From contig NMRA01000081.1 of NCBI GenBank assembly GCA_002633005.1, forward strand, positions 3,625 through 67,624: DNA of 64,000 nt, written 5' to 3'. Below the pieces are notes generated by a model. That model worked only from the letters and a program-made list of their open reading frames with translations. It was not told where the DNA came from and made no database searches. Source of the DNA: Phoronis australis (Eukaryota > Animalia > Phoronida). Position 1 is the stretch's first letter, and every line of letters begins with the position of its first letter. Made by a program: the position numbers and the translations under genes. Of this stretch, positions 16,401 through 64,000 are shown in pieces.

Positions 16401-16597
16401 TCAAATAATTTACAATCTACCATGGCTGGCAGTCTATCGTGCGCACTCTGCCCTTTCTTTGGCCGCAACAGAAGGTAGATTTTGTTGATACCTGGGCAGC
16501 ACCTAAGCAGTTTTTCAATGAACACTTTGCCAATAAAACCACTCCCTCCAGTGATGAATATACTCTTTCCATCGTAATACTCCGCTATTGACATCAT
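7411..16597 (-). CDS. FAR1: Fatty acyl-CoA reductase (FAR1-like), 10 coding exons, 518 aa
   Basis: Exons 16597-16233, 15893-15821, 15398-15292, 14234-14057, 13706-13662, 13434-13248, 11108-11024, 10299-10080, 8871-8744 and 7579-7411 are all GT-AG and phase-consistent (1557 nt). The protein has the Rossmann motif [21 protein letters not shown], catalytic PNTYTYTK (YxxxK), GWIDNLNGP, the Sterile/FAR_C segment [18 protein letters not shown] and a C-terminal hydrophobic anchor. Confidence 0.95.
12125..12380. repeat. Interspersed repeat, diverged partner of ~17790-18040
   Basis: Both copies share GACAACTTG.AAATGTGAA...CACTAATGAC...CATCATGCAG...TCACGATAC.TACTGGACA...TGGCAATTTT. Confidence 0.75.
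14660..14900 (-). mobile_element. tRNA-derived SINE in a FAR intron
   Basis: Minus-strand Pol III box A TGGCCTAGTGG (14883-14893) and box B GGTTCGAGTCC (14839-14849), followed by a non-tRNA body. No convincing cloverleaf. Confidence 0.65.
16183..16228. repeat. (GCAC)n(CA)n microsatellite just after the donor of the first FAR coding exon
   Basis: Directly visible; it accounts for the VCVCVC tail of ORF 16178-16597. Confidence 0.95.
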
Positions 16598-34100: not shown

Positions 34101-37100
34101 ACGAGTACCATTCTGTACATTGTAATGTGCTTAATTAACGAATAGTTTTACTTTATCAACGTGCACTGTTGCCCAATCATAGCGTACTTTTAATCAGGTC
34201 ATATACCCCAATCCCCGGGGTTCACTCATCATACTGACAAGGTGTACACATTGGTGAGAGACTCAGGCTCGCTAATTCTCACCCCTCCCTTTGCGAGGTA
34301 CTACGGTAGATTTTTCTGCCTCACCCCCTTTTGCTGGGCTGATCAAGCCAATGCAGTGGGCCTTTGCTGAAAAAGTGCCCCCTATCCACAGATTTTGGCA
34401 CACGCCTGCGGGCATCTTGTTAATATGAGGGACCCTCCCAGGAGCCCGTCACAACCGTGCTCTCAAATCTCAAAAAGGGCGGAAGACTTTCTACATGGGT
34501 GCAAGGCAAATTTTGACGAATGTTACAGATTCTTATCAAATGACCACGTAAATGATGGCGCCGTTACGTTCTGAATGTGAACTTGCCTTTGCCAGGACGA
34601 ATAACAAATTCAGCGCGTTGATCAATTCGCGTTGATTAAGCAAAACTACGCGTTGATGATGCAAAAGAGCGCGTTGAATAAAAGTAGAACTATGATCAGG
34701 ATTCGACAAAGTATATAGGTATGTATAGTTTCACACTGCCTTCTCAAGCAATAAAGTCTGACTAATGGAAACGGCACACTGACCACGTTGTCGGTTGCAC
34801 TGCACTACCACAATGCGCTTGCGTTTACAATCTCCATCGAGAAATCTTACTCGGCAGTCATTCAATGACCTCTCGCCGCCTTTACACGTCACCTTTACTT
34901 GAAACTTCTTTAAGTTTGCCGGAATTGAGGTAAGGATTTCAGCCCCATTGCTGAAAAGTTGAATACACCAGTAATCCAATTACCAAATTATTGAGAATTT
35001 AAAAATGCAAAGAGAAAAGCTCTTAAATTGCCCGAAGCTGGGCTTTGGTCAGTTGATTCTGTGAGCAACCCGTTACATGAATAGGCGCCGACGGACTTAG
35101 AATGTCATGTGGGGATCTTCTTACAATTTCTGACGGATTAGGGCCGAAGTCCTAAAGACAGCATTATCGTGCCTTTCTAATTTGGCAATACCCGGAGGAA
35201 TGCTCGGTCCCTCCCCCGCACACCTAAATCTGCAAATGATGCCTAAGGCGAAGATCGATTTCAGTGAAGCATGCTTAAATGAAATATGTTTGTTCCCATC
35301 CGCTGACTCAGATTCGTAGTATATCCGGCGCGACCGTGCTGTTCTGACAATGATAAAGTTTTAGTGTACTCTCGTTTTTTGTCAGCTGTCATCCTGGGAT
35401 CACTAGTCAGACATTTTAATTCAGGCAAAGGATAAGAAAGCAACAACATTGCTTTGATAGTACAATTGCACCTCTGGTTATGGGAGCGTTTTAAAGAATA
35501 CAATGAGATAATGGTCCTACGTGTATCCCATTTGTCGACAGATTACATGCGCCTCCTTCACGCCCATTTCAGGACTGTGGCATAACGTTCCCCAGGAGCT
35601 TTGGTGGCGAACGTATATCTCTATTAATCCTGCTCCGTACTTTTCAGTCGATCTCCAGAACCGAACAGGATGCTCATCTGAAAGAGGCGTATCAAATAGT
35701 GTTGCCCACACAACTGGTGGTGGGGGTGGTGGTGAGGGGGGGTGGTGGTGGTGGTGGCGGTGGGGGTAGTGGTGGTGGTGATGGTCGAGATGGTGGCAAT
35801 GACGGTGGTTGTAGGTTTGGTGGTGATGGTGGGTGTTTGTGAGGTCATGACAGTGGTGGTATTGGTCGTAACCATGATGATGGTTGTGAAGATGACAGTA
35901 GTAGTGGTGGTGGTTGTGACGATAGTGGTGACGGTTGCGATGATGGTGACGGTGGTGGGGGTTTTGTGGTGATGGTGCTTTTAGTATTTTGAAGTCTAAT
36001 GATCGGTTACCTTGGAAAACTTTAATATTTTTGAGTTTTCTTCGTTTTATTTGATTTTATGAAAAAGGTGATTCTTCAGCTTCTGTTGGCAAAACGTACA
36101 TTGTATGACCAATGTTTACTGCCGCAAAATTGGTTTTGCCTTGGTTCCTGCAAAGAACTCCAGACAGGTCAATCACTAGAACTCTTGGACCGGAATGCCA
36201 ACTAGAACAACAATCGCGTGCCAACTGAGGGTGTTTCATTTGCGTTCTATTTTAAGGTATTTGCGATCGTTGAAGTTAAGAAAAATGACGTCACTTTTTG
36301 TTCTCAAGATGACAAGTAGTAAAGTTGTTAGAAAAGGAATAGGAAGTCAAACAGTTTTGTTAAGTTAATTTAGCACGTATAATACTGTTTGAAATAAATC
36401 GTGACATATTTTACTCAGAAAAAATGAAAGAGGCAGCTTCTAGTGCATTTTTTCGAAAAAGTATTTTTTGATAATTAAAGGCTGTTTTCATTATGAATCA
36501 AATTACTACAAAAAGAATTACAGAAACGGGTGCGAAATTCTCTGACTGAAAGTAGAGGGAACCATGCAAAACACAAAACTGATCTTTAGGCCTTGCCAAT
36601 TGTTTGGTTCTGGCATCGGTTTTGTTATATGAACATCCTGAACTCGGTATACTGAAGTAACTNACAGGAACAATACCTAATATACACAGGCAATATGAAT
36701 GATTGCGTCTGCAGTAACAATGACAAGTAGTAAAGTTGTTAGAAAAGGAATAGGAAGTCAAACAGTTTTGTTAAGTTAATTTAGCACGTATAATACTGTT
36801 TGAAATAAATCGTGACATATTTTACTCGGAAAAAATGAAAGAGGCAGCTTCTAGTGCATTTTTTCGAAAAAGTATTTTTTGATAATTAAAGGCTGTTTTC
36901 ATTATGAATCAAATTACTACAAAAAGAATTACAGAAACGGGTGCGAAATTCTCTGACTGAAAGTAGAGGGAACCATGCAAAACACAAAACTGATCTTTAG
37001 GCCTTGCCAATTGTTTGGTTCTGGCATCGGTTTTGTTATATGAACATCCTGAACTCGGTATACTGAAGTAACTGAACGTTCTAATGTATTTCACAACTTA

Positions 37101-41397: not shown

Positions 41398-44245
41398 CTG
41401 CGAGACTTCATTGGTTTCTGATTTACATGACAACATTTCTACAAAGTGGACTTATTCATTGAATATTATAAACTAAGCCTGCATGAAACTGATGAACAAT
41501 TAACTTAGACATGGGAAGAATTTTCAGGAAAACTCAATCAACCGACCCCAAATAGCAAAATGCACTGGATGATTTCTACCAAGCTGAAATATCCTTCTAA
41601 GAAGTTATAGTGCTCTGGTCAAGTGGTGATGCTCGTCATATCTCTACGGATAGAGCAGCCTGTGTGGGAGTTCCTTACGTTGCCACTAGTCTGGGTAGTA
41701 ACACCTTTTCGGCACTCTAAAGGTCAAAATCATACCCTAAACGCGTAACAGGCGTAACGCGTTCAGGTGTGAGTGACCCATTCTCGTGAAATTTAATCAT
41801 TTGAAACGTGAGTACCCAAATTTCTGGTGGCTGCCTCCCCGGGGTTTGAAGCTCCAAACAGCTAAGTCAGCACGCCTGTGACTGGGGGCGTGCAAAATTG
41901 ACCACTACCAGTAGTGACGAAAGTAGCAGAGAACGGGGAATCTGAAATTTGGGACCGTGGGGGCAAGTGTTTGCCTCCCCCCCCACCATTTTGTTTCCTA
42001 CAGGCCTGTACTGAATCTATGATACCATGTCAGAGTTATACACAAAATGTTTCAAACATTTTTTGAAAACTTCTTAGAAAGTCTGCTTAACAGGCTACTA
42101 GAGCGATCGTGTACGCAATAGGCAAGTTAGTCGGCAACAGGGAAAGACCACCCACAAGAATCTCAGCATCCCTTCTGTGACACAGTGAGTACGTGTTTTT
42201 AGTTGAATACTTCTTTTATTACTGAAATGAGATGTCAGTGGTACATTAGCTGGGGACAGAATGAAGATTGATTGAAAGAACCAAAACTACAGTGGGGTTT
42301 CGTGTGCTTTTAACTGAGGAGTACTTCGTGAGACCTATGACCATAGGTAAGAATTTAGTTTACATGCAGCCGCCAGGACGATCAATGCTGAGGGATGCCG
42401 GTTCATACGGAAGTGGGGTTTTTACGTATTTTATGGCACGATCACTTACGGTCCTCGATCATAAATAATGATTTTTAAATAAACCACTTACCGTTATGAA
42501 ATTTGTCTGACATGGTTCCTTAGTCAAAAATCCCTTAGCTTGGAAAGGTCTGACAATTCAAATGTCATTGCTAGAGACCAAGAGCTACAAGTTGTCTTTT
42601 GTCTCGTTTTATTCGCTAAACATGGTCTCGAGAAATCAGTAAGGAACTGGCAGACCTTCGCGAGACCAAAAATTACCCTTTCTCCTAGTAAGGAATTTGT
42701 GGCCAATTTCATAGCGGTGAGTGGTTTAAATCAAAAGTTCAATTCCTGCACGAAACGTAGGTTTATAGCCGCCTTGAGGCACGAGTACAATAACACACCT
42801 CTTTAATTAACAAACGCCAGGCAAAATTGGAAGAATTCACTTAAAATTCTAAAAATGCATTTGTATTTGCAGTGGCAGATTTGCTGGTGGTTCGGAAGCT
42901 TTAATCTCCTCCAAATAAATGAGGTTTAGGGCAAAAATATCCATCTGGCGTTATATTACGACAACCCTCCCGTCTATCAAATCGTAGACCACCATTGATT
43001 TGTACAACTTTGTTACCAAGGCTAACGTTAACACAGGTTTTGAAATAGTAACCCGAGACAAAATTCATTCAAAAGCATTGGACCTATCAGGAAGCATGCA
43101 ACCTTCCCCAAATACAGCAAAAAGGGACAGGTATTAAGCTGAACTTATGACTTACTTACATTAGGAACCCCTCTGGCAAATACTGACAGAAGCACTACGT
43201 GCATGCAAGAGCTTTGAAAGTGTCGATTTTGCGGCATTTTGATATCAAATGTACACAAAAGTTAAGGATTCGAGCATGTTATGATACGGCAATATACTGC
43301 AACACGTGCAGTTGTTAGCATACTAATGTCAGACTCGTGGAACGTACATATACACTGCTCAGTAGTCTGTGCGTCAGCGTAATTTCCACAGGCGCCTGAG
43401 TTTATATGTTCGTCGATCGCAAATGACGTCACTCACTACTAAGAAAACACTCAAAACGGCGGTGGCATATCCTCTGTACTTTCTCTAAAGCGGCAATGTC
43501 TTTATGGGTATAAGAGTCCCAAACAGTCGACGCCTATTCCAAGGTTGATCGAACTATTGTTTTGTACGCAAACTCCTTACATCGTTGGCCGAAGAAACCC
43601 CAGAGTTTTATTTGCTTTTTTTCTTAAAATTAACTTAATTTTATCTCAAATTCCAAAGGCGGTGTAAAAGCGAGAACTCCATCCAGTTAATTGTCTTGAG
43701 TCTCAACTTGCATAACGTGCAGCCAAGTTTTGTTCGTCAAATAAAAAGTTGAAAGATCCCCTATTGCGGATATCACTGATTCGGGATCGCCGGGGAAACC
43801 ACAAAAAATGACAGGACAAATTTTCTCAGGTGGACGTGGGGTCATTTTTCATCGGGTTGAAAATTCTTCACATTAATTTTAGTCTCCGAGAAAAAACTAC
43901 TCGGGGTCATTTTTAATACTGAAATAATTGACCCGGTCGTTGTTGAATGCTACACTGGCCTTGCGGGCACGCTTTTCGAAATTTCTATGCAAAATTTACT
44001 AAAAATTAAGACAGTCATGGCATTGTGATTTTTGAGGACCTTTGAGCTTGGGGAGAAGAGATGCTCATTCTCGTCAGTCACTGTGTGTTTTGGCTCGCCA
44101 CTGTGACGGCGCCGTTGGCAGGCTCCGAAGTGTCGAGATCATAGACATTAATACTGTGATGTCAATACGGTCGAGACAGCGAACAGTTGCCGCTAGGTGG
44201 CGAGTGAACCGGAAGTTAGTTGAGACCTGTGGTCGATGTTAACCA

Positions 44246-44398
44246 GGCGTGCGTTCAGTAGACGCTAGGACCTACGCTAGGACCTAGCTAAAACCTAGAC
44301 AAAGTCACGTGCTCTTATTTAAAATGCACAGCAATATCTCATGTAATCTCGCGAAGTCTTGCTTTTTAGCGAGGTCCTAGCGTTACTGAACGGGAGGC
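44246..44398. mobile_element. ~155-bp palindromic MITE, copy 2 (degenerate relatives at ~44500-44597 and ~25370-25457)
   Basis: Near-identical to 27206-27358; a diverged copy with TCTAGTCAAAATCACGTG...TCTCGCGAGAGCTTG follows immediately. Confidence 0.75.
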
Positions 44399-44419
44399 TG
44401 GTTCCCGGGCCTCACAAGC

Positions 44420-44640
44420 TGACGTCACTGGTTGCTTACCAACCTCGAGGGTCTGTGCAGGAGACTACCACTGTGATAGAGTGTATGGTCGATATCACGA
44501 GACGAGAAAATCTAGTCAAAATCACGTGGTCTCATAGAAATACAAGGAGATTTCTCGCGAGAGCTTGTTTTTCTAGCGAGACGTTTCTTAACTGAACTCG
44601 ACCCGGGAAATTCCGTTTTGTCACTTCTTGGAAATTCACA
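44420..44640 (+). promoter_or_regulatory. Immune-type motif cluster upstream of the TPR-TIR gene: CRE, kappaB, GAS
   Basis: TGACGTCA at 44420-44427, GGGAAATTCC at 44605-44614 and TTCTTGGAA at 44625-44633, all within 270 bp of the ATG at 44687. Confidence 0.6.
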
Positions 44641-44686
44641 CTCTGAATTGTTGAACTGTTTGGTAGTAACCGTACACTGAGTCAGT

Positions 44687-47140
44687 ATGGAGCCAAGCCA
44701 ACGAATTTGTGATCTGAAACGTCGCTTGGAGAAGTTTCCGAGCTCATTCCAATTAACACTAAAAGGTAATGAAAAATTACAGCGGGTGAAAAAGGTGGCA
44801 CACACCTTAGCGAGCGAGAAGAATAACCCTCAGCCGTACAATGAACTGCGCACCGATAACCTCCTCTCGTACCTGTTGTATGAGCAAGGACGTAGTCTCG
44901 AGGCTTTAGAATTAATTAAGTGTGTTAAGGCAAAAGATCCAACAAATATTATCGTTCGCGCCAACTTGATTAACATTCTCATTTATGACCACGAAATAGA
45001 TGAAGCTGAGAGAGAACTCAAGGAACTTGAATCGTTGCAAGAAGCTGACGTAACAGCTGCGAAAAGTGAGCTGGCCTACAGTTTTTCTAGGTTCGGGCCA
45101 TTATTTCACAAAGAAGCTTTAAAGTATTTTGAGCAGGTGACCAAAATCCGGCCCACTGAGTGGTTGTGGCAATTTGGCTACGGTCTTGTATTGCAGAGAT
45201 GTCTAACTACAAAGTCTTACTTTGAAACGCTCGACTTTGATGGAAACGAGACCTTTTTCAAAGCTTTGGACGCATTCTCTGCTGTTCTAAAGCATCGTGA
45301 AGCACCTGTTGTTATAAAAGCCAAAACTTTGACCAAGCTTCAATCCTGTATTGCACTTTACTGTGCATTACCAGAGAAGTCTCGCAATAAAAATCCCCAA
45401 GATGCTCTTGAGCCCTTTTACAAAGCTATTAAGGAACAAGATGGAGCCAAACATATTCGTGACGTCACTACATCTAGTTCGTGGCATGAAGTGATGAAGT
45501 TTTGTATCGAAGAATCGTTGAGAATTGCACCAAACGACCGCACGGTTTTACAGGACTGTGGAAAGTATTATAAGCAAGCAGGCTTGCTTCACAAAGCTTT
45601 CAGCTGCCTAGGAAAAGCAGAGAAAGTCCAACCCAATACTGTCATCTATGCGCAGCTAGCTGATCTTGAAGTTAGGATGTGGGAGAAAGAATATGAAGAA
45701 CAGCTTTGTGCTGGAGGTGCTGTCAGTTTGAGGCAAGGCGTTGGCGACAAACCACTTGAGTATAGAACGGTTTCAAACACAAGGGACATTGAAGATTTGT
45801 TTAGTAGTTTCAGTCTTCTTAGTACTGAAGTGCAGGATTCTTCGATAGTACCTGTGAGCCAGATATGGCTTGCTCCTGTGAAATGTGAAGCCGAACGTGT
45901 GAAGTTAGATAGATTGGAAAAAGCTCTGAAATTGTATTCCAAAGCGTGCGATGTTAGCAAAGGGGATGTAGCCGCAGTGCATTTGCAAAAGGGCAGAGTT
46001 CACTGGAAACTTAATCAAATCCAAAGTGCCATTTCATGCTTCAAAAAAGTGATCAACTTGAGCTCCTCTTCTAAGTTAGAACGAATTCATGCCCATGAGC
46101 TTATTGGCCAGTGTTATCTTTATCGGGGAAATGAGTCTGGGGACAAGACAGAATTAGTAAAGGCAAACACTTTTTTTTTCCTAGCTGTTGAATATTCATC
46201 TTTGCTCACTCAGCAAGTGCCTTTTGATGTAAGATGTCAGTATCATTTTACTCTTGAAGACATTTTGAAAAACCAGATGAATAAAAACCCATGTGACAAA
46301 AGGTTACTCCAACAGTGTGGTTTATTTTATAGCTTAGTCAAGGAACATCGAAAAGCGTTGCCCTTTCTTGAAGAAATATTAAAAAGTGACTCAACTGATT
46401 GGTTGGATTACCTGGCAATGTTCCGTGCTCTTTTTGACAGTGGACAATACCATGAAGCTGTATGTTTTCTTACTATACTCATTACTAATGGTCATAAGCA
46501 GAATGAAAAAGAAATCACTAAACTCATAATTGAAGCCGCTATAAAAGCGGGAGAAAACGACTTAATTGAGAGGCGGCTTACGGAAAGTAAAGAACAGTTT
46601 AAAATTGCCTATACTTATGCTGTTCGAGACCTTGGCAGTCAAGAATGTGGTCGTTATGATATTTACATATGTGGTGAACTGCTGTCGGACAACATTCATT
46701 TCAGGTATTTTGAGAAAGTACTTCACGAATATTTCGGCTTGCATTGCTATATAGCTGATCCGGGCGCTGTAACTCCGGGCTCATACCCAAACCATGAACA
46801 TACAAAAGCAGCCGACAGCAGTGATAATTTTCTATTTGTAATTCTCAATAAAAACGGCGACATGTCGCTCTGGTCTCGAGATTTTAGGTATGATTTGGAA
46901 CAACTTCGCTGTTCAGTACTTTTCGTTAAACGCGAGTTTTGCAGTTTTACTATTGTAACAGATACCGAGTGGGAACCTGTTGGTTCCTTAAGAGGTTTGT
47001 CGGGATCTCCTTCCATCCCACATTACGATGTGTGGCAAAACACAAAGAACGACGGGCCTGAATTTTTTAAACTTCTTCTTCAACTTTTTCGAGCCATACT
47101 TACCCCGACTCTAAGTAATAGAAAGGGGAAAACGACTTAG
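44687..47140 (+). CDS. Intronless IFIT/TTC22-like TPR-repeat protein with C-terminal TIR-like domain, 817 aa
   Basis: Uninterrupted 2.45-kb ORF with many TPR helix pairs (NLLSYLLYEQGRSLEALE; CGKYYKQAGLLHKAFSCLGKA; KGRVHWKLNQIQSAISCFKKV; CGLFYSLVKEHRKALPFLEEIL). The C-terminal ~150 aa (YDIYIC...LHEYFGLHCYIAD...PG...AADSSDNFLFVI) follow the TIR betaA/alphaA/betaB/BB-loop/betaC pattern. Confidence 0.85.
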   Translation: MEPSQRICDLKRRLEKFPSSFQLTLKGNEKLQRVKKVAHTLASEKNNPQPYNELRTDNLLSYLLYEQGRSLEALELIKCVKAKDPTNIIVRANLINILIYDHEIDEAERELKELESLQEADVTAAKSELAYSFSRFGPLFHKEALKYFEQVTKIRPTEWLWQFGYGLVLQRCLTTKSYFETLDFDGNETFFKALDAFSAVLKHREAPVVIKAKTLTKLQSCIALYCALPEKSRNKNPQDALEPFYKAIKEQDGAKHIRDVTTSSSWHEVMKFCIEESLRIAPNDRTVLQDCGKYYKQAGLLHKAFSCLGKAEKVQPNTVIYAQLADLEVRMWEKEYEEQLCAGGAVSLRQGVGDKPLEYRTVSNTRDIEDLFSSFSLLSTEVQDSSIVPVSQIWLAPVKCEAERVKLDRLEKALKLYSKACDVSKGDVAAVHLQKGRVHWKLNQIQSAISCFKKVINLSSSSKLERIHAHELIGQCYLYRGNESGDKTELVKANTFFFLAVEYSSLLTQQVPFDVRCQYHFTLEDILKNQMNKNPCDKRLLQQCGLFYSLVKEHRKALPFLEEILKSDSTDWLDYLAMFRALFDSGQYHEAVCFLTILITNGHKQNEKEITKLIIEAAIKAGENDLIERRLTESKEQFKIAYTYAVRDLGSQECGRYDIYICGELLSDNIHFRYFEKVLHEYFGLHCYIADPGAVTPGSYPNHEHTKAADSSDNFLFVILNKNGDMSLWSRDFRYDLEQLRCSVLFVKREFCSFTIVTDTEWEPVGSLRGLSGSPSIPHYDVWQNTKNDGPEFFKLLLQLFRAILTPTLSNRKGKTT

Positions 47141-47514
47141 CTATTGCTTACGGTTTGATCGAGCTGTTATGCATTGCTTAGCCCACCAAACACTGAAGAC
47201 GGCACAGTTTTTATCGGTTTGTGATATTGCTTATCATATTTCTAACTTTGACCCGATTTATTGTCAAGTAGTGATTGTGTGTTTTTTAGAATTTATGCAT
47301 TATAGAGCATTCAAAATACGGCCAAATGGTTTTATATTGGTATACCATTGGTATACCATTCCTTACCGTTGTATGTTATAAGCTACATTTTATATTTATA
47401 ATTTTGTAAAATCAAATAATTTACCTTAAGACTTACAGGCAGTATAAATACCCACTTTTATATGAAATTCATTTTACAGTAATGTGGTGGCCTTGTGAAG
47501 ATGTTTTAATGTGT

Positions 47515-47537
47515 AATAAAATTTGAATTAAAATAAA
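47515..47537 (+). terminator. Polyadenylation signals of the TPR-TIR gene
   Basis: AATAAA at 47515-47520 and 47532-47537, about 380 nt after the stop codon. Confidence 0.5.
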
Positions 47538-48765
47538 CCAGATCGTATCATTTTGAGTAAGAACAGACAATTACACAATACATCGATATTTAATTTAAAC
47601 AAAAGTACGAACAAATATAAACTGAACTTAAAGTTTCAATAGTTCTACTTCTCTCGTACTGCTGAGGAGTCGATGTGGGTGAGCACTTGACGTCTTATTG
47701 TTTGCTGGAATGCACGTTTGCCCGAAAGACTTTATATTTATTTTCACGTTCACCTGAACAGTGCTTTAAACGTTAATTTATAGGAATAGTACATGGCATT
47801 ACCTTCCGCCAATGAAATGTTTTAGTTATGATCAGATATTTGCAGGATTTATCAGACAAGCCAAAGAGCAACTGTCGCGCGGGTAGGGCGCATATTTTAA
47901 GGATACTGCAGCCGTGTGAACAGTTTCGAGAATTTCACGATAGTCAGCCCGATGCACCTTTTCTTTTTACCTTTCTTTATCAATCCAAAAGTAAACATGT
48001 CGTGTGGAGTGTTTTAACTGTTCAATAATTAACAAAATTGAATGTCGTTATCAGCAATTTCGTCATTTCGTAATTGTCTTTACAATTATGACTCGAATAT
48101 TTGTTGTATTACTCATAGCTATTCGTCATTCTTTTTGTCAAAAATAAGGTTTAAGTCCTCAGTCTACAATATTTTTTTCGTTCTTAGTAATGGAGAGCAA
48201 AATTACTACTCCTGAGAAAGAGCAATTGAAAATTCTGGTTAATTGCCCGTTTGCAAGAGTGTATTGGCGATCATGCTATAAAAGTTTAAGAACTGAACTC
48301 CCTAGAAGTGAGTTATCCCCCCAGAACAACTAAATCTGAGGTCACGGCGAATGGCGGGTAAGCAAACGAGTGCAAAATCTGTTCAAGTCATTTTTAAGGA
48401 AATGAATGTAAGCCTAGAGCTGGATACAGAACTGATCGCGTGTTATCGCGTTGTACAGTAGTACCTATAACAAAATTCAAGGTGGTATTATTTGCGGACA
48501 GCCTATAGATTTACCTGCAGTTTTTCTTTGGCTACCCGAGATCTTCTTTACAATCCACAGAATGTCCTTAGCATTGCGAGTTTTTTGATTTTTAATCACA
48601 GTGCCACCAGAAGTTATCGCTTTGTAATTTGTATTTGACCTATATGTTACAATATTTTTATAATTATAAGGTTCATTTATTTTAAAAATGTGATAGGTCA
48701 TCCACAAGGTTTGAGCGTACAAAACAATTTCAATAAATAATATGGTCTGCAATATATTCCACCAT

Positions 48766-51700
48766 CTATTTCTTCCGTGCCTTAAACCTGTGCCAAGCCC
48801 TTTGTATGACCTCAGCAGCGCGGATCGCCTGCCTTATCTTCAAAACGCGATCCTTCTGCTGTAGTGCTGTACTCATGTAGGTCTCCTCTCTCTGGCTTTC
48901 TTTCATGGCTGTGATCTTTTCAGGCTTGACCTCTTCATCATTTGGCTCACTTGAACTGCCTCGAATTTGAGGTTTAAAGAAGAACGCCTTCTTGGGCACA
49001 ATGAATTCGCGAGGAGGGGACTCTGTTTCCTCACTAATGGGTTTTTCCTTCTGCAGCTTAAAGAACGACTTTTTGGGTACAATGAATTCACGTGGTGACG
49101 TCTTCTCTTTGCTTTCGGCCCCCTTAGAATGGCTGCTGTCTGGATTTGCCAGTCTTTCTGACTGCTTACTGTCGTTTCCTGATAACAAATGGTTGCCAGC
49201 TTTCACTCTAGTTGACTTCCGAGTATCTTCATGGGAACTGCTTATGTCTGCAACGAAATAATTAGTCAGAAACTTTATTTCAAGATACAACAAAAACATA
49301 AAATATTCTTTCCCTCTAGCTGTAAAAGTACCTGCTCTGACAGGTGGAAGAAAAACGATCTGATGGACTTGAGAGAAGTTTACCAGCATGAGGTCCATTA
49401 GCAATGGCGTCCTCTATTATTATTATTAAGAACTAAAGGTAATGACACACCAGTAAAGCATAGTACCAAGAGTTTAATAGTTTATCACATTTATTGGAAA
49501 CAACAGACAGATATGACGTATGCAGTGCACAAGTCAAAGTAGAATAGTGTGCCATGTTTGTTAGAAATGAAAAGTTTTGCTTTTGATTGTTCAGCTTTGC
49601 TCTTTGGCCAAATGCACGAAACAGTCCCAAACAAGGATTCAATTCTAAACCACCTATGCATTGGTGATTTAGTTTACTCACAAATATCATGTTTTTACCG
49701 TAATCGTTCTGGTTAACGCCCTGGGCGGTTAAATTGGCGAATCCAAAAAATCGGGGGAGGGCGGTTAACTGAGAGGTGGGCATTTAACTGGAAATCTTCA
49801 AAAATCGCAGGGGGGCACTTAACTGAGCAGTGGGCGGTTAAATCGAAAATCCACTTAAAGTGGGGATGGGCGGTTAACTGAGCATGGGCGTTAACCCGAA
49901 CGATTACGGTATATCCCTTTATCTTAATCAATATGAGCTGTGTTACCTATGGCGTTTGCAAATAATATAATATCTGGAAAGTCATCGTCGATTTCAATTA
50001 CAATAAGGGAGTTGCATAAAAAGGTCCTTATTCCTTTTCAAAAACATCAACATAGAGTTAGTCTTGTGTGGGTAAAAAAGCTAAAAATTGCTCTGGTGAT
50101 GAAGATAAACAGAATTAGAAAGGGCAACCAGTGTTTGCACACGTCAATTCATGAGGTGAAAAGTTAAGGAATATAGTTGAGTCCTCGTTTGGGGCTGTTT
50201 GGTGAAACCGGGTACTTAAAGTATAAGAAACAAATCCAAAGTCAAAGAGGAAATGGATGGTACAATTCTTCACATGAAATGGTTAGATGGATAGTACCTA
50301 TTCTGAACTTTTTGGCATCATAACTGCTCCGACTCTTGCTGAGTTGCTTGACAAGCTTGGCTGCATCATTGTTCTCATCCTGAAGCGATAAAATGGTATG
50401 AAGGAAGCAGTTATCTTAAAACTTGCACCACAAAATATGCTTCTCAGTCATTTTTAACATTGTTTTCCAAATCACACTGGCTTATCAGTTGGAACATGAA
50501 CTATGTACAATAGGTGGCACTGTAATGTAAAACTCCCTCAATCACTTAAGCTTTCACAATTTAGCACAGAAGATATTGCACTGTCTTCTTCCACAAAGTT
50601 ACCTTTTTTATTTTTTCAAGGGCTTTTAACATCTTCATGAATGTCCACAATGTCTCAAAATACTGCTTGATGGTAGTTATGGTGCAAAACTTGGAGATGA
50701 TAAAGTATTCGTTTGGTGCAACATAGGTTTGAAAAAATCTAGTATAATAATTGTAACTGGACTTGTCCGACATACAGGGTCCTGGATTGGGACAGACTTT
50801 ACCCTAGCATAAAGAAAATTCGTTGGCCAAGAGTCAGATTCAGCAAACAGAGACAATTACCCGAGATCTGCTGTCTTTTTGTGGCCTGGCATACTGGTCA
50901 TAAAACTCCGACAGCACACCAACCTTCGTTTCACCCAACATGTTAGACAGGGTAGAATCAAAGGAGTTTGCTGACAAGCCCATCTTGCGTGCATCAAAAT
51001 TTCCGTTGGCACTTTTACTCACATACTCGCTTGGCCTTATCTTATCTCCAGAGGCATGATCTCTTTCAAACTCTGCATTGTCCGTCAGTTGCTTAGAATT
51101 CCCTTTGAAAGAAGTCTCTTTAGTTTTTCTGGGATGTTTCCTTTCATACACGAACTGTTGAAGTAGGTCGTCATCATCTAAAAGACGGCCGAAAACAGCG
51201 TCTTCCTTCTGTCTTGGGCTTCTTTTTTTAACATTATTTTTGTACTGACCTAAAAGATCTGCATCATCATTCTTCTGTATTTTATCCTTGGCAGATACTT
51301 TTCCAAATGAATTAGTCGAGACAGAATTGTCATTCCAAGACTTGTCTCCCCTGTTCCAGGTAGTTCCAATAGTTTCATGCTGACTTGTGTGCCCTTTAGA
51401 AGGCCTAGGACCTTTAACAAAAATGGAAGACTTCTTCACAGTTCTATCCATTCCATGCTGTTCCTTAGTTGAATTGAACTCTCTTGACATTTTGTCCCCA
51501 TGCAAGGCTTTAAAGAGAGGGGATGTGTATGGCACGCTGGGGGTCTCCAAGCCAGATAACCCATCTTGATTATGGTTTTTACTGGAATCAAAGCGATCAC
51601 TGGGTGACTTTTCAAATAGGTCCTTAGAAGAAATGGATGTGGAGGCAGGAAAACTGGGCTGGATTAACTCTGCCACTGAAGAGTGATTGACAGCATTTTC

Positions 51701-54700
51701 ATGGTTCATCGCAGCGGATGTGGGCGAGTAAACTGGTCCATTTTCAATATCTTCCACTTTCATCTCTGTTGAATGCATTGCAAAACTCTCGCTCACGGGC
51801 AGGTGACCATTGGAAATCCATTTATCATCCGTTGTTGCCGGGCGACTGTTGTTAAGGTTACCAAACAGACTGGTGGCAGGACTGCCACCAGACTGTGACA
51901 TGCGCAGTTTCTCCTTGAACTCCATCAGTTTCTGCCGCGTCGACATCTCCTTCACTTCCAACTGTTTGCTCACCGCCATTATTCGCTGGCGCTCTATCTT
52001 TTTCTGGTACTGAAACAATGACACATACCATTACATGAGATCTTACTTACGACGAGTAGCCTCATTTCAAAATATGGAACATGTTGCACCATAGATATTG
52101 ACATAATTTTGAAAGTGTAGATGGCAGCAGTTGAATCACTGCCCATCCCATAACATTAACTCTGATAGCGTGCTGTATCAAGGAGGTCAGAAGGCTGAGT
52201 GTAGCCAGTATTCACCATCACTGTAACTGGTATTACAGGTAATGGTGGGTAATTATACCCAACATGACAGGGAGATGGAACTTTTCTTTTTGCGAGTCCT
52301 GTATATTAATAACATTTAATTCATTATCAACTTCAAAACAATGGCACAAAAGCTGTCATGACAACTGCCACCACCCTCATGACAAAAGACATTATACTTG
52401 GCCACCAACACTAAAACTACCACTAGACCACTACAAATTATCACATGCCACCCAATTTTAACTATGTACCGCCCCCACTATAACTGTTGCATCCACCACC
52501 GCCCTCATTCCTACACATCCTACACCTGTAGCTCTTCTTTCATTTAACTAGCACCCCCACTATAACTAATGCAACCGCTACCATCCTCATTCCTAGACAC
52601 CCGTTACCTGCAGCTACCCTTTCACCTAACTACATACCACCCCCACTATAACTAATGCAACCACTACCATCCTCATTCCTAGACACCCGTTACCTGCAGC
52701 TACCCTTTCACCTAACTACATACCACACCCACTATAACTAATGCATCCACTACCATCCTCATTCCTAGACACCCGTTACCTGCAGCTACCCTTTCACCTA
52801 ACTACATACCACACCCACTATAACTAATGCATCCACTACCATCCTCATTCCTAGACACCCGTTACCTGCAGCTACCCTTTCACCTAACTACATACCACAC
52901 CCACTATAACTAATGCAACCACCACCCCCCTCATTCCTATCCCCCTGTTACCTGTAGTTGTTCTTTCTCCTGACTCTGCAATATCTGCTTCACCTGCCTC
53001 ACATTCAATTTTCCACCACTGTTTGTGAACTCGGAGAACTTCTCGTGCAGATCTCTCCGAGGTGACCCTGCCAACGGGACTTCCTGCTGCTGGTACTCTT
53101 TCTGTATTGCCTCTTTCTGATCACCAATGACCTTTAACCTCTTGTGCAGCTTATGCTGTGAATATATAGAAAAGATTGCATTATAGATACACCTAACAGT
53201 ATGGAGTGGTACCGAAAGTGTACACAATAAAGAATATTTTAAAAAAACCTTCCAAAAAATTTCAAATGACAAATATAAAAAATTTATTTCTACATGATTC
53301 ATTTGTTTCTAAAATATGTTTGACGAATCTAATTAAATTTTGTCAAAATTGGCCTTTTTGGAGGGTACCACTTTTGTTGAAAGTTAAGTTGTCTCACGTC
53401 AGCAGTGAATGTATGACAAAGAGCGTGTTCACTGTACAGGCAAGGCAGTTCTATAATTCTTACACATTTCATAAATGTAACGCATGTTTACAATGCAACA
53501 AGATTAAATGCTGTGTTGGCAACAAAATGGATTTGGATAAAAGCGACAAAATTTGCTGATAATATGACCAGAGAGTGCAAAATGCAGAATATTGCACGAC
53601 ATTGGAGAGTGTTATTTATAAAGTTCTGTAATTTCTCTAGAATAATTTTGCAGAATTCCCCGACATTTCCCCTGTCTATGACATCCATCAATTGGGCAAT
53701 ACTGTTATTAAATTTCTAAATTCCAAGATTTTCTAAAGTAAAAGACTAATTTGCTTCCAATGATCAACAGCTGAAATTTCTACCACAAAATTCCATACAT
53801 ATGTCCTTGACCTCTAATGATGAAATAATAATGCATTTCTGTGAATTTAAAAATGCCTTATCAATAACCCTTCCTTCAGATATAAAGACAGTGCTGTTAA
53901 TTAAGTTTTCATGTGACATCTATCAACTACCCACGTCTACAATGATAAGTACTGTAAAAGTTAACAAAAACTTCCAAGAATATAGTTACGCACCCATTAG
54001 TTAAGTCAGGTCAGGGCATTATAGGTAAACTGAAATTTTTTGAAGAAAAATCTAAAACACAACAATCCCAATAGTTAATGCCCTGGCTTTATCAAATACA
54101 AGGCCACTGCTTTATCAAATGCAAGGCCACAACTTTATCCGATGCAAGGCCACTGTTTTTATCAAATGCAAGTTCACTGCTCACTGCTTTATCAAATGCA
54201 AGGCCACTGTTTTTATCAAATGCAAGTTCACTGCTCACTGCTTTATCAAATGCAAGGCCACTGCTTTATCAAATGCAAGTTCACTGCTCACTGCTTTATC
54301 AAATNTCAGGTCAGGGCATTATAGGTAAACTGAAATTTTTTGAAGAAAAATCTAAAACACAACAATCCCAATAGTTAATGCCCTGGCTTTATCAAATACA
54401 AGGCCACAACTTTATCCGATGCAAGGGCACTGTTTTTATCAAATGCAAGGTCACTGCTCACTGCTTTATCAAATGCAAGGCCACTGCTTTATCAAATGCA
54501 AGTTCACTGCTCACTGCTTTATCAAATGCAAGGCCACTGCTGTATCAAATGCAAGGTCACTGCTCACTGCTTTATCAAATGCAAGGCCACTGCTTTATCA
54601 AATACAAGGCCACTGCTGTATCTAATGCAAGGCCGCTGCTTTATTTGCCAACCCACACAAACAGACCTCTCTCTTTTTTAGCTGTCGCTCCACCAACTTC

Positions 54701-57700
54701 TCCTGCTGAATGAGATCTGGGTCAGCCTCGTTACGCTTCAATGACAACACATAAGCATGCTGGTCTGCTAACTGTGCACGACACCGGTCAACGCTTGCCC
54801 TGAATAATAGAAGTGCTAAGTTTTGACATGTCACATTCAGCGACCTTCGGGAAAACGTGATCAAAGGCATGTTCACCATCCACAGGAGCATGACTAATAG
54901 ATGATGTAACAGTTATGTAACGCTGTCCCTCAGGACTGAGGACTGACCACCACATTACATAATGTGGCTAAAAACATTTTGGATCACTACGGCTGTCAAA
55001 ATGATAAATTTTCATGAAAAGCACAATCGTATGTTACGTACCATTCCCCTTTACTCAGCCAAGAAATATTCAACATCACGATCTGATCTAGTATCACATT
55101 CAATCAAACTTGACAAACATGCCTATTGTGTTGGTACACAATGCTAGTATTTCATATAAAACATATCTTCACAACATTTGTCGAAAGTCATTTGGAAATA
55201 GTATTTTTAAATATTGGTTAGCCTCAAGTGTGCTCTTTACAACATAATTGGTGGATTACGTGTCCTTATCAGATGAACAAAGACAATGAGAGACCTGGAC
55301 CATGTAAACACCGGTTTTCCAACTATGTCCCCTTGTTATCGCTGTCAAACTGATAACAACACAGCTGTATCCTGACTAGCCGATCAGCGAAATCAAGATA
55401 CTCATCCCACAGTGCAGATGCATAACAATCAGGCTCTAAGAAGAAATTTGCATTGAACAAAATGTATAAAAAAGCACAGTAATTATGACCGCCGTGGGTT
55501 CAGTTGTACAGGGAATGCCAAGAGTTGGGCTGTCCCAGGACTGAGATATAGACAGGATAAAACCCAACACAAAATGAACAACAGGATGCCCTATTGACTC
55601 ACTGTAGTTCTTTTTCTATCAGCTCCAACTGCTGCTCCTTGACAGACGTCTGGAACTCCACCAAATGTTGTTGTTCTTCAAGCTGGTTGGCGTACATCTT
55701 TTCCACTTTGTCATTGAGCTTCTTCACGTCTCGCTCTTTCTTCTTTTCAAACGGCGTCTTGAAGGCCTCCCTCGCCTTGTGGCTCCCAAACCTGAACTCT
55801 GAACGTGAGACAACAAATAACTATAATAAGTCAAAAAGCGACCTGTTTCATGAACAGTGACTTTTAAGTCACTTTTAAGTTTAAAACTTAAATAAGAAAT
55901 TTAGTATTATGCTCCACGTACCTATTTTTGAAAAATAAATAAATCCCACTTGAGCAAAAATGCAGAGCCTCTGAGAATATGCAATCATACTGGTAGTTAC
56001 TAGCTGGGATAACTTGTTTAAATTATTCCTAGACTGTGATGGTCTCGTAATTACTTCAGGGATCAACCTTTAGTCCACAATTGTCACAACTGAGAAGGTG
56101 AAGTGAGAGCCTACGAAACTTTAGGTCACTTTTCATGAAGCAGACTGTGATCCCAAACCAGAACTCTGAATGCAAAACAACAGGCAAAGCTGAACAAATC
56201 AAACTGGTGAATAAGTGATATTTATCGCAGGTTACAAGGAAAATTATGTTAATCAGTTCAAAAATGTGGGAATCAACTGACACCTGATGCAAGATCTGAC
56301 AGCTGCCAATTGGAGAGATATGGATAATATTTAAGTTATTAAGTGTAAAGAGAGCACCGATTTCAGTCAAACAGATGGTGCATGTTATAACAGAAGCTCC
56401 CTCTATAGGACATAATGAAAATACCTTAATTTATTCATAATGACTCAAGACGACAAATGGTGAGCCAAGCTTAAGCTCAACATTTTCAACTAGGCTCATC
56501 TTGCTTAGACTACCATCATTTACGATTGGTGATTGATAGACCGTCAAAATTTCAGACGTCTAGCTACCAACTTAACACAATTTTTGTATCAGACAATTAA
56601 GTTAAAGAAAGAAAATCAAACAACATTGTGTTATGACTAACGTGGCCAACATACATGTGAGGAGAACTGGAATTGCCAAAGATCAAGCTAGAAAGCTCAA
56701 ACCAACATGCGACTTCAGAGAACATAATTACATTCAAAACATTCCTGTAAGACCTCATGCTAGAAAAACATACCAGTGCACACCCAGAACAGTGTAACTT
56801 ACTCTCAATGCAACATCAACCAAGAACTTCACAGCACAATCTCAGGAAAAGATATGTACAGGTTGTAATTGTGCTTAGCATGCAAATGTTGCCGACGTGC
56901 CATGAACCACTCACAAAAACTGGCTTCAACCAGAATGAGCAACAAGAGAGGAGGGGAGTCGTGGCTGTGTACTTACAAGCCCAACTGCCATGCAAAGTCT
57001 TCAAGAATCTTATGTGCTTCAACAACAAACTCACCATAAAGATCCACATGTCACAACACACTCTGGCTGACCCACACACAAGAGCAAGACTTAAAATGTT
57101 GTATTTGTCAAACATTCTTGTCCAAACAAATCGCACACAATGACGCTATTGTCCACAGCTATAACACAAAGGCATAACTAGCCCCCAATAATTCATGTAT
57201 ACAGGTAGGTTATAACTTCATTTGATTGATATGGCCTAATAACTGCACAACTGTTTGCTTTAATCTTGTTTCATAAACTTTGAACAAGAATTAGCAGCCT
57301 TACTGGTGTACCTGAAAACAACATTGCAAATTAAACTTTACTAAAGTTTAATTTGCAATGAGAAATTAACAACTTCACCTCAAAGGTAAAATAATAGCAC
57401 ACAGGCTTTTCTACATTTTAAGCGTAATAGGTGAAATATTCTCAAAATATAATTCATTACAATTAAAATACATAACCCATTTTCATGATTTTCTAAATTT
57501 GTCACTAAGGGCAGTTCATGTTTATTGCATTCACTACTACACAATCTATCTTGATGGGAAAGCTCAGTTACACGTTATGTCACATTACCTGGAGTTGAGG
57601 TGTACACTACTCGCTTTTTGGGAGTGGGTTGGGTGGAGGGAGGCTTGTCTACAAATTAAAAGGACATGCAAAATACATGGGTTATAATCCTGTGAGAAAG

Positions 57701-60700
57701 GTCACATTTCAGCAACTGGCTTTGAGATTAGCATGAGAATTAGTAACACTAAAATCTCACCATTAACACAATATTGCAGAAAGACGACATTTTCTTTTTT
57801 TCTTTTGTTCTAAATGATACAAAATACCCAAATAATTCTTTGTTGTGTTCAAGGTGTGTACTTTTACTATCAAGAGGCAATGTTTTGAAAAATTGTTGGC
57901 ATTCACAATCATGTTAGAAGCTCTTGAAAATGCGAAAAAGTGCAATTTTGGTAATTTTTTTGTCGGAAATGATGAGATTCTATCGTAATGTTAATGCAGT
58001 ATGCTAAGAGAAATTCATGATGAAAACTTACAACTTCAAAGTCGGGATTATTTTTCTAGAACACTGGGATGAGATCCCTGCAAGTGACTGTAACCATTAG
58101 TGTTCTAGAAAAATAAACAGCTATTGACAATAGATGTTCATTAAAATGTCATCCAAGTAAATTAGATTAAGGATTTACAGTTGAGAAAATAAAAAATGTC
58201 TAGCTTTTAAATTTAAGTTAATAATAAGAAAGAGATTAAATGGTGTTACTTTGTTTAAATTTCTATTAATAGCGAGATTGGGCATTATGTGGATTACCTG
58301 AATTCCAGTCAGCATTAAGAGATCCCCCAGTCCAACCATAGGAGTCACTAGTGTTTAAGTTAGTTGAAGCCGGTGTCGCCATCTGTATGTCAACTTCTTG
58401 ACCAACTGACTGGATAGACTCCATAGTAACGGGCCTGAACAAAATTAATATTACATGAATAGACACAATTCATAGGAATGAGATTGAGATTCAGCAGACA
58501 AACAAAATAATATACCTAAACGTCAAGAACTGCAATGGAAACTTCAAAGATATACACTAGTGGGATGCAGCGTTCAGCCAAGTATACAAGTTAATATGCA
58601 GTATTCAAAAACATACATCAATCAATCCAATGGAAGTTTTTAGTCACTTAACAGAAACTTCAATCAATACCTCATGTAAACCATCAGTTTACATCGGGCA
58701 ATCAGGAAGTTTGCCCATGCATTTTTCATGAAATTTCCTAGTGAGGCTACACGCTAGACCACCAAGCCGATGGTTAACATTATGGTACACGTTTTGACAA
58801 TTAAGGCAAACAACACAAAAGATTTTTGGTAGGATAAGTCAATGAATTGGAACTGAACACCAAGTGGACTCATAAGTAACTTAAACATTTTTTTCTATGT
58901 AATGGTGTAGGGCACATTACACTACATATTATTTTAAGAGGGACGCAAGAGTATTTGTGGTCTGCGTGTATTGCTAAGAAGATACAGGGCTTCTTATGAT
59001 GAATGCAAATATGGGATGATTAGGAAGGGATTACCTCCCCTGTCATTGATGGGGAGAAATTAGTTTCAAAACCCAAAGGTTGTTCTTGCCTTGTGCTTAG
59101 AGTAATAAGTATGACTGGGCAAGATTTAAAATTAAGGAACTTCAAAAATGTCAAATGAAAAATGTGTTTCAAAAAGCACCAAGTGCAGAAGCCTGGTAGA
59201 CGTGAAAATGAGGTTTTCAGCCCATATTTAAAGAAATGGTTTACGTTTGTGAAGAAAAACATCACAGAATTGTATTTTTAATCACGCTCATAGAAGCTGG
59301 ATCGACTAGCAGAAATTTCACAACTGCAATAGGCCATCAGGCTTTACGGACCCCAAGAGGACTCCATTGTTATCCAGGCTTTCAGTGACCAATCATAAGG
59401 ATACCCTTGAATCCCAGACATCCATTGACTCCCAGAGGATCCCATCCACCCCCAGGCTTTCATATTACACCCAAGAGGTTCCCATTTACCTTCAAACAAC
59501 CGCAAAGTGACACTTCAGCAAAAGAATAATTATACTAAGATTAGGGCAAAAAAGCAAAGTTGGTTCTGGCTCATCGTGAGAAATGCACTCATAGACTAGA
59601 AACAAAGTCTGCCCATGTCAATTTCATCCTTTCAAGCTTTTGTGTGTTATTAAAAAGTAACACAAAATCACATAAACAAGGATGAGCTTTGAAATGACAT
59701 GATTTTGCCAAGCGATGAGTAAAAAAATAAAGCCCGCATAATTTTTGCTCATCTGTTGTAGATTTCGTTTCTTGAAAAAGTGAGCAACTACTAAGATACT
59801 GGGCCATCGACTCGATTCTCAAAAAAACAAACATCCAGAACCAATAATGTTTTTAGCCAATAAGAATTTGTAATATCATAAAACACCGATCTCTTGGTAG
59901 GTCAGATTGTAAATATTTATCATTTCAACGTGATAACTTTGTCATTCTGTGTTGTGTAATGGTTTAAGCCCCAATGAGGAAAAATTTCAGACTTGAACAT
60001 TACTGTAATGGTCGGGTGAGTGATGTAGTTAACAGATATTGTGACAACTACAGAAATTCACCAAATAATTATCATGTGAAGAAACAAAATTTGTTCACAA
60101 GGAGCAGGAAATATTAGCTCTGAGATCATGAGTAGGTCCGAAAATCCCACCTTTGTTTTGACGCATCAGATTCATCAATGAATCCACTGGTAGCCGAGCT
60201 GATCATGGACAGATTACCAGAAGAAATCGGTCTGGCTCCGGAATTATCTTTAGTGGACGCAATCAAGTCCTTGAGCAAGTTCATGCACTCACGGAACTGG
60301 TACAGGTCAGTGATACCTGCAAGAAATAAATGAAACTTTGTGAATCCAAATTTGATTGAAGAGTTCCTGAACAACACAAACGCTATAGTTTATCAAAGGG
60401 ACAGTGCACACAACAATATAAATTTATTGCCAAGAAGTGTTCAAGTTTTATATTTTAGTAATTTTTAAGGCATTTTATCCTTTTTTATAACATTCACATT
60501 ACTTTTAAAAAACATGAATCAACTCAAGACATGACAATGATCAATGTTGGTCTCGAGAGAAACACAAGACAAAAAAGTTGAAATACCCAAACATATTTTC
60601 ACTTAATATTAAGAATAATTCAATTGTTACCCTCGGGACTTGCAAACAATGAAAATACGTGGCACGCTTAAAATGTAGTTTCAATTACCTAAAAAAATAT

Positions 60701-62945: not shown

Positions 62946-64000
62946 CTGAAGTTGGAGAAACAGGGCTCAGTGCAAGAAATAGCACTCATTGTATTAAAAG
63001 TTACAAATAAAACAACCAGGCATCATTAAATAAAAACATTCCTCAGACAAATACATAACTGCTATTTCAGTATTGGTTACCCAATTTATTATTTAATCAG
63101 TCAATGATGATTTTCATATCACAATACACTGATCGATCTTACTCTTGTTTTGAGGTATGAAAAGTTATATATCCTGATAGCATGCAATCTCTATTTCTAA
63201 AAATTATCCTTTTTCGGATGACACTGCCATGACAAAATGGAAACTTAAGTTTCAGATTAATGCTGCACTAAAAGCGACTCAGGTGTTATATCATTATTCA
63301 GTACATGTTATAGACACTGACTTTGGCACATTAGCAGTTCATGTAGTTTAATGAATTTCTTTAGAAACATTCTCCATTATTTTTATAGGTAATAAATAGA
63401 TAGAAATTTAACAACAAGTTGAAGTCGTTCATATAATAACTTTATAGTTCAATTCCAAAAACAGTTTCTACAGTGCCAACAAAACTTTCCCAACAAAAAT
63501 GCTCATCTCTATAGCAGGAAAAATCTTTAACATTTTCAAAAGTACACACCATGACAACCGTACCATAAACATACAGACCACAATACAGGAAAAACTAGAC
63601 AGCATTAAAACTGACCATAACATTTGCTGAGCCAAGTCCCGAACAAATAGATAGGATCAAGGTATATCCAAGAACAACAGACAAATTTATGCAAACGAGT
63701 ACATGGCATGCATGAATAGTTTGACAGCAGAGCCTCCTGTAGGCAGAATTCACTGATTACACGACAGTGTTGTTGGTTGGTAGCTTCCATACACAGTGTT
63801 CCAAATTCTGCGAACTTTTGCCGATCTTCCAATATATTGTTGGTATGTCTCTTGGTGACCAGCTGTGTATATTTGTTCTCTGGGAGATCGATGAATATAC
63901 CAAAACTTTAAAAGCGTATGTATGAAATATGCCCCCCGTCAAGACTGTCGCATATATAACGAACTTTGCATACACGTGCACACGACCAAAAGAGAAGAAC

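Follow-up and report, generated by a model that had tools for sequence, protein, structure and literature searches.

A Phoronis australis gene predicted to join an IFIT-type solenoid to an adaptor-type TIR domain

The gene, its transcripts and its upstream region

The window studied here is a 64,000-nucleotide stretch of Phoronis australis DNA (GenBank assembly GCA_002633005.1, contig NMRA01000081.1, positions 3,625 to 67,624 of the forward strand). Its longest open reading frame (ORF), at 44687..47140 on the + strand, encodes 817 aa with zero internal stops. The product is predicted to comprise a tetratricopeptide repeat (TPR) solenoid with the fold of the IFIT proteins, a group of linker helices and a C-terminal TIR domain. 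The stop-to-stop frame of the ORF opens at 44681, with an in-frame stop directly upstream, and the start position agrees with the start of the relatives in the alignment.

Raw reads from three RNA runs of the same species were aligned to the window. The stretch 44530-47630 collected 114, 73 and 157 reads per run, of which 47, 15 and 72, respectively, were at least 99% alike. Depth over the ORF was 0-12x and the reads had a single mate orientation in every bin, the one expected for + strand RNA in the usual stranded library. No splice joint was found over 44530-47630 in any of the three runs. The gene is intact and expressed at a low level, and its coding part is unspliced; an upstream non-coding exon is possible. 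The single-exon 817-aa ORF claimed in the initial annotation is thus confirmed by the stop-free translation, the same-strand RNA and the lack of joints. A candidate polyadenylation signal, AATAAA, lies at 47515..47520 (+), and RNA depth is zero by about 47440. One DNA contig covers the whole of 44530-47630 unbroken and may be the source of the window.

There is no second copy of the gene within the 64-kb window; outside it, copy number was judged from sequencing reads. A second, strongly diverged paralog is represented by two short DNA pieces that match 45161-45204 and 47056-47098 and lie 1,812 letters apart (versus 1,851 in the window). It is transcribed: RNA reads from two runs share the same loose ends as the DNA pieces. 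Between 44863 and 47054, RNA reads of other samples contain patches that differ by 5-13% next to stretches at 99%, reflecting divergent alleles or a close paralog. At least 27 variant codons were listed (a partial list), 17 of these 27 being residue-changing. None of the indels seen in the gene is a frameshift; one is a 3-base insertion.

Three motifs lie close upstream of the ATG, and their factor names are consensus labels that we take to apply here. A candidate NF-kappaB consensus site (44605..44614, +) is located 82 bp before the ATG, followed by a candidate STAT-type gamma-activated site (GAS) palindrome (44625..44633) and a candidate AP-1 consensus (44678..44684) 3 bp before the ATG. Across the whole window there are 2 kappaB sites (3.3 expected by chance), 29 GAS and 9 AP-1 motifs. 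Neither any of the 6,353 other 150-bp windows nor any of 20,000 shuffles contained all three. Sense reads are steady from bin 44634-44737, consistent with a start shortly after the kappaB and GAS sites; no start was called. Read from the motifs, this arrangement suggests an immune-inducible gene. Further upstream, a cAMP response element palindrome is found at 44420-44427, 267 bp before the ATG, and high-copy repeat pieces occupy 44241-44582, directly upstream of the motifs, where the summed contig depth in one bin reaches about 100,000. The repeat recurs once more at 27201-27358.

Predicted folds and the putative RNA channel

The IFIT-fold region spans aa 1-585 (44687..46441, +), the whole length of IFIT1 and IFIT5, to which it is about 15-17% identical (human proteins). 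Colinear IFIT homology is not detectable from the sequence of the window protein alone and needs a family profile: the single protein yields generic TPR models only in Pfam, and IFIT3 at E 0.035 only in the PDB. With a 92-sequence profile, the best natural proteins in the PDB are IFIT1 (2.3e-33) and IFIT5 (2.5e-31), with OGT at 2.2e-19; designed consensus TPRs rank above IFIT1 and IFIT5. The profile is colinear with IFIT1, positions 1-167 aligning to residues 2-175 and positions 249-546 to residues 234-467, so that the IFIT-like motifs picked out by eye in the initial annotation prove to be real. A 28-member alignment and an 8-member lamprey/amphioxus alignment reproduce the same IFIT ranking in the PDB. 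IFIT5 is the best PDB match of the lamprey/amphioxus profile, TRAM is its TIR match, and a single lamprey member on its own finds IFIT5 as top match (E 2.2e-5).

An AlphaFold2 model of the window protein has a mean local confidence score (pLDDT) of 85.5 and a predicted template modelling score (pTM) of 0.82. In a Foldseek search with this model the top 10 rows are all IFIT5 or IFIT1, with template modelling (TM) scores by target of 0.63-0.76. VIA-align gave Z 25.8 for IFIT1 (root-mean-square deviation, rmsd, 3.9; 440 of 454 residues) and aligned 457 of 482 residues of IFIT5; 11 IFIT1/IFIT5 rows lie at Z 23.6-25.8, and the best non-IFIT chain reaches Z 19.7 over 282 residues. RNA-bound IFIT5 is closer to the model (rmsd 3.9-4.0) than three entries titled without RNA (5.5-5.6). 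IFIT structures in the training data may have influenced the model; the profile result is independent of that. Together, these data predict with strong support that aa 1-585 adopt the IFIT fold. A housekeeping-TPR reading was rejected, since OGT, Tom70, APC/C, LGN and SKI3 align over fewer residues and with lower scores; the earlier proposal of an IFIT-type rather than a housekeeping solenoid is supported by both the profile and the fold comparisons.

Two features are additional to the IFIT fold. A low-confidence insertion (aa 349-393; 45731..45865, +; pLDDT below 50) appears as a gap against IFIT1 at the short pivot turn of IFITs, and its length is very variable among the relatives. Three extra helices (aa 586-650; 46442..46636, +), seen in the secondary structure of the model between the IFIT fold and the TIR, are absent from IFIT1 and IFIT5, whose alignments stop at model residue 568-586.

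The TIR domain covers aa 655-812 (46649..47122, +). Modelled alone, aa 630-817 gave a pLDDT of 82.7 and a five-stranded, flavodoxin-like TIR fold. In the AlphaFold2 model described above, the TIR fold opens at Y657 (strand 657-663). A fold search with this segment returned TIRs for all of the top 12 of 48,161 chains. IL-1RAcPb is the best match (Z 12.5, rmsd 3.1, 139 aligned), SARM1 (11.1) and IL-18Rbeta (11.0) score somewhat lower, and TIR-1, TIRAP, TRIF, TIR-STING, TRAM and MyD88 are further matches. The C-terminus therefore models as the TIR-like fold that had been proposed from aa ~656 onwards, and we regard a TIR fold at aa 655-812 as predicted with strong support.

Pfam detects no TIR in the window protein, and its TIR_2 model is found in 4 of 21 family members at E ≤ 0.1. 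A profile built from the TIR alone (21 C-terminal regions) matches oyster TIR-STING (2.3e-8) and MyD88 (3.8e-6), as well as TLR15, IL-1RAcPb, TIRAP, TLR1/2/6 and TRAM. NAD-cleaving TIRs match weakly (Roq1 and AbTIR at E 0.18-0.9), and the 45 rows at E ≤ 1 do not include SARM1. The catalytic glutamate of helix C is present in none of 62 relatives in the alignment column and in none of 20 re-aligned relatives; the window protein has Asp736 and MyD88 a glutamine in the same register, which is taken from the sequence alignment rather than from coordinates. The BB-loop reads D-P-G-A-V-T-P-G, including P697-G698, and carries a one-residue insertion relative to (R)DxxPG; among 20 relatives the proline is kept in 10 and the glycine in 12. 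A 2020 survey credits SARM1, as the sole animal TIR, with NAD-cleaving activity, in the accessible portion of its text (PMC7075850). As the catalytic glutamate is missing and the domain resembles adaptor types, NAD cleavage by this TIR appears unlikely, and an adaptor-type TIR is the better reading of the sequence. Two outputs had been envisaged at the outset, adaptor-like signalling and NAD cleavage; the TIR-only profile favours the former and the missing glutamate speaks against the latter.

The relatives search covered 1.84 billion cluster representatives and gave 185 matches at E ≤ 0.001, the best 150 of which were listed; the best relatives are 24-35% identical to the window protein. In a local search, 121 of 151 proteins (the window protein included) match aa 5-235 at E < 1e-5. 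Three of the 121 are generic TPR proteins (P0088, P0143 and P0151), and P0088 is also inside two family alignments and the tree. About 118 relatives were found, and the gene is therefore not a one-off. A TIR is marked by the family TIR profile in 72 of the 121 N-terminal matches (62 used to build the profile, 10 independent), and most of those without a marked TIR end before the TIR region. We looked up 29 relatives: 13 are molluscan, 2 hemichordate, 2 amphioxus and 3 lamprey, and 9 are without a name. Most are annotated as uncharacterized; two (Pomacea, Octopus) have automatic IFIT-like names. In an Atlas cluster whose feature score to a relative is 0.96, most members are from echinoderms and 91% of all members have TIR_2. 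In an unrooted FastTree phylogeny of family members only (112 of 119 sequences), the window protein forms a long branch outside the named-mollusc and named-deuterostome clades, with weak support (0.85 and 0.34).

Word-indexed homologue searches returned 9 lamprey proteins and one without a name when started from the lamprey/amphioxus alignment, generic TPR proteins only when started from the family alignment, and nothing when started from the window protein alone; they returned no IFIT or TTC22 sequence, which marks the limit of the search and is no sign of absence. Among the individual members, Batillaria P0002 (1,941 aa) is a predicted protein with two IFIT-TIR units, whose TIRs lie at 615-753 and 1772-1933; they form a tandem pair that annotation has perhaps merged. 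Lampreys hold several family members (P0074/P0189, P0187, P0199 and P0201) with adjacent locus numbers.

R135 (45089..45091, +) aligns to IFIT5 K150 and IFIT1 K151, a triphosphate contact, and R171 (45197..45199, +) to IFIT5 R186 and IFIT1 R187. K or R occupies the R135 position in 83 of 91 relatives and the R171 position in 84 of 91, and among the conserved polar positions of aa 1-619 R171 ranks third and R135 fourth. Two papers, in their accessible parts, report that IFIT5 depends critically on K150 and R186 to bind RNA (PMC13197388; PMC9677429, Table 5). The positions of IFIT5 K257, R260 and R294 carry K or R in 68, 79 and 64 of the 91 relatives, respectively, and that of H287 is a histidine in 79. 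The window copy itself keeps 6 of the 14 IFIT5 contact positions: T37, K150, R186, K257, R260 and Q288. Judged by this conservation, a phosphate-binding channel is likely for the family.

A candidate mechanism and its rivals

We tentatively propose, as a plausible reading short of firm confidence, that the gene encodes an inducible cytosolic receptor for RNA ends, in which an IFIT-type clamp is coupled to an adaptor-type TIR that would signal by TIR-TIR contacts. A basic channel on R135, R171, K293, K296 and Q323 would, on the evidence of conservation, bind an RNA end that carries phosphate; the specificity of the channel could differ from that of IFIT5. Clamp closure or clustering on RNA may free the TIR, which could then nucleate a MyD88-like assembly driving NF-kappaB/IRF output. 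Induction of the gene by NF-kappaB and STAT, a step read from the promoter motifs, would make this a feed-forward loop.

Several observations weigh against this proposal. Eight of the 14 IFIT5 contacts are changed in the window copy (E33 to K36, Q41 to E44, Y156 to H141, Y250 to T286, R253 to Q289, Y254 to D290, H287 to A322 and R294 to V329), the mapping of E33, T37 and Q41 being less sure, as it runs through IFIT1. Q41E, R253M, Y250F and Y254F are classed as strongly damaging to IFIT5, according to the accessible part of the source (PMC9677429), and glutamate in place of Q41 is one of these very changes. The window copy has also lost the histidine at 322 that is kept in 79 of 91 relatives, and the K/R at 290 (57 of 91) and at 329 (64 of 91). 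Family-wide, a basic residue stands at the R253 position in just 4 of 91 relatives and at the position after it in 57, and 51 have an acidic residue at the Q41 position. The region aa 1-345 has no net basic charge (50 K+R, 49 D+E). The promoter motifs were picked post hoc with five motif classes tried, and no interferon-stimulated response element (ISRE)-like GAAA-N1-2-GAAA is found within 1 kb upstream. The TIR of the window protein is divergent: it scores 15.6 bits against the family TIR profile, below the default filter, although above all 2,000 shuffles (best 9.8). Foldseek places the flavoprotein ArsH (flavodoxin fold, rmsd about 6.5) first and TIRs from rank 8; a non-TIR flavodoxin reading was rejected on the strength of the 12 leading TIR chains in the fold search and the TIR-only profile matches. 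Finally, vertebrate TTC22 is the top Atlas structural neighbour of the family member P0005 (TM 0.62, 456 residues aligned), and to our knowledge this relative has no known immune role. The Atlas is without the window protein, and its rows quoted here are those of P0005.

A less probable, still serious alternative is an IFIT-like effector that sequesters foreign RNA ends or blocks their translation, the TIR acting as an oligomerizer or as a TLR/MyD88 decoy. Such a role would agree with the retention of the whole IFIT fold and the core arginines, and with a fast-evolving TIR, which shares 9-21% identity with the window protein and is recognized by Pfam TIR_2 at 1e-5 in just 1 of 52 relatives. 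The inducible-type promoter motifs would fit a downstream effector equally well, and IFITs and TTC22 work without a TIR. However, the TIR is kept in the 72 N-terminal matches described above, and Pro-Gly is the commonest state of the BB-loop.

Rather doubtful, in our view, is a channel ligand other than viral RNA, such as a phosphorylated peptide, a host RNA end or a nucleotide messenger, bound by a TTC22-like scaffold with a TIR output. The changed contacts, the acidic residues at the Q41 position, the scarcity of basic residues at that of R253 and the TTC22 row for P0005 all favour it. The reported partner of TTC22 is a protein, RPL4, and its knockout is without phenotype in the accessible part of the report (PMC13693868). 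On the other hand, the best-kept polar residues of the family lie at the triphosphate positions, and the model is closest to the RNA-bound shape of IFIT5.

Two further readings are very improbable. An RNA-triggered NAD-cleaving enzyme, like SARM1, plant NLRs or Thoeris, could point to the SARM1 TIR in second, fourth (TIR-1) and sixth place of the fold search, within about 1.5 Z of the top, and to the acidic D736 at the catalytic position of the window protein, but Glu is missing from the 62 relatives (Asp in 1 of 62) and from the separate alignment of 20 (mostly Y, F or L), box 1 reads YDIYICG without the usual Ser-Tyr, and SARM1 does not appear among the 45 matches of the TIR-only profile at E ≤ 1. 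Equally remote is a decaying or specialized paralog with a non-working RNA pocket, for which the losses at 290, 322 and 329, the long branch, the diverged paralog present in DNA and RNA and the residue-changing variant codons could be cited, but which sits poorly with a full-length open frame, expression in all three RNA runs, indels free of frameshifts and intact core arginines.

Relation to known systems and neighbouring genes

The proposed RNA-end receptor shares with human IFIT1 and IFIT5 (PDB 6c6k, 5udi, 5w5h, 4hor, 4hot and 3zgq) the complete fold, as predicted, with its parts arranged alike over about 440-457 residues, the N-terminal motif, the K150, R186, K257, R260 and Q288 positions and a coding sequence in one exon. 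It differs in the 45-60 aa pivot insertion, the three extra helices, the C-terminal TIR, the 8 changed contacts, the lack of an ISRE-like motif in the 1 kb upstream and the invertebrate host. ISRE motifs in the proximal promoter are described as a feature of the IFIT family in the accessible text of a 2013 survey (PMC3688568). The window protein is not an IFIT family member as so defined, because it has a further domain, the TIR, and no ISRE. TTC22 is about 565 aa long with no TIR among the listed families of its cluster, and its likeness rests on the structural row of P0005.

Oyster TIR-STING (6wt6/6wt7) and the TIRs of MyD88, TIRAP and TRAM are the best sequence matches of the family TIR profiles. 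TIR-STING is likewise an invertebrate sensor fused to a TIR; here, by contrast, an IFIT-type solenoid would be the sensor, with the TIR at the C-terminus, and TIR-STING has the glutamate that the family described here lacks. Proteins with TIR and TPR have been counted as a class in oyster (PMC4346834), and TIR-TPR is named among the abbreviations of an Aplysia study (PMC9334734); the accessible texts make no link to IFITs or to RNA binding. These classes, and the ecTIR-DC classes of invertebrate immune surveys, may overlap with the present family. Bacterial TIR-TPR proteins (Atlas rows with TIR_2 or ThsB_TIR plus TPR) combine the same two kinds of domain with feature scores of 0.86-0.88, but TM is 0.3-0.4 only; scores below 0.9 are leads, and there is no sign of a shared IFIT fold.

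The published view places the origin of IFIT genes with jawed vertebrates and interferon; the 2013 survey, in its accessible part, found IFITs only in jawed vertebrates and rejected candidates from lancelet, acorn worm and lamprey (PMC3688568), which may or may not have been members of the present family. We found full-length IFIT-fold proteins in the lancelet, acorn-worm and lamprey groups and in molluscs, with a signalling domain that IFITs lack, which suggests an IFIT lineage that predates interferon. No description of an IFIT-TIR fusion was found in the open literature; the accessible texts of PMC6321704, PMC9334734 and PMC6723221 do not mention one, and subscription papers (such as that defining ecTIR-DC) and supplements could do so. 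The window adds a TIR-bearing copy that is intact and expressed and that forms a branch of its own, together with residue counts for the channel and the TIR and the promoter motifs.

We speculate, with rather less than even confidence, that IFIT-TIR proteins are an undescribed set of animal pattern-recognition receptors, from molluscs to lampreys, that sense foreign RNA 5' ends and signal via their own TIR, and that the IFITs of jawed vertebrates (and TTC22) descend from them as shortened forms, having lost the TIR and come to serve as effectors driven by interferon. If RNA-end binding and signalling both hold, invertebrates would possess, in addition to RIG-I-like receptors and TLRs, a third kind of cytosolic RNA sensor in this family, and IFITs would have begun as receptors.

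Elsewhere in the window, a kinesin gene in convergent orientation has exons at 48766-63022 (-) and ends in an IQ-like motif; from its motifs we take it to be KIF6/KIF9-like. RNA depth on the kinesin (-) strand rises at 48576-49000. Kringle and SRCR exons of an upstream multi-exon gene lie at 31132-31638 and 35517-36056 (-), and an exon encoding NAD_binding_4 (reductase; E 2e-34) is found at 16178-16645 (-).

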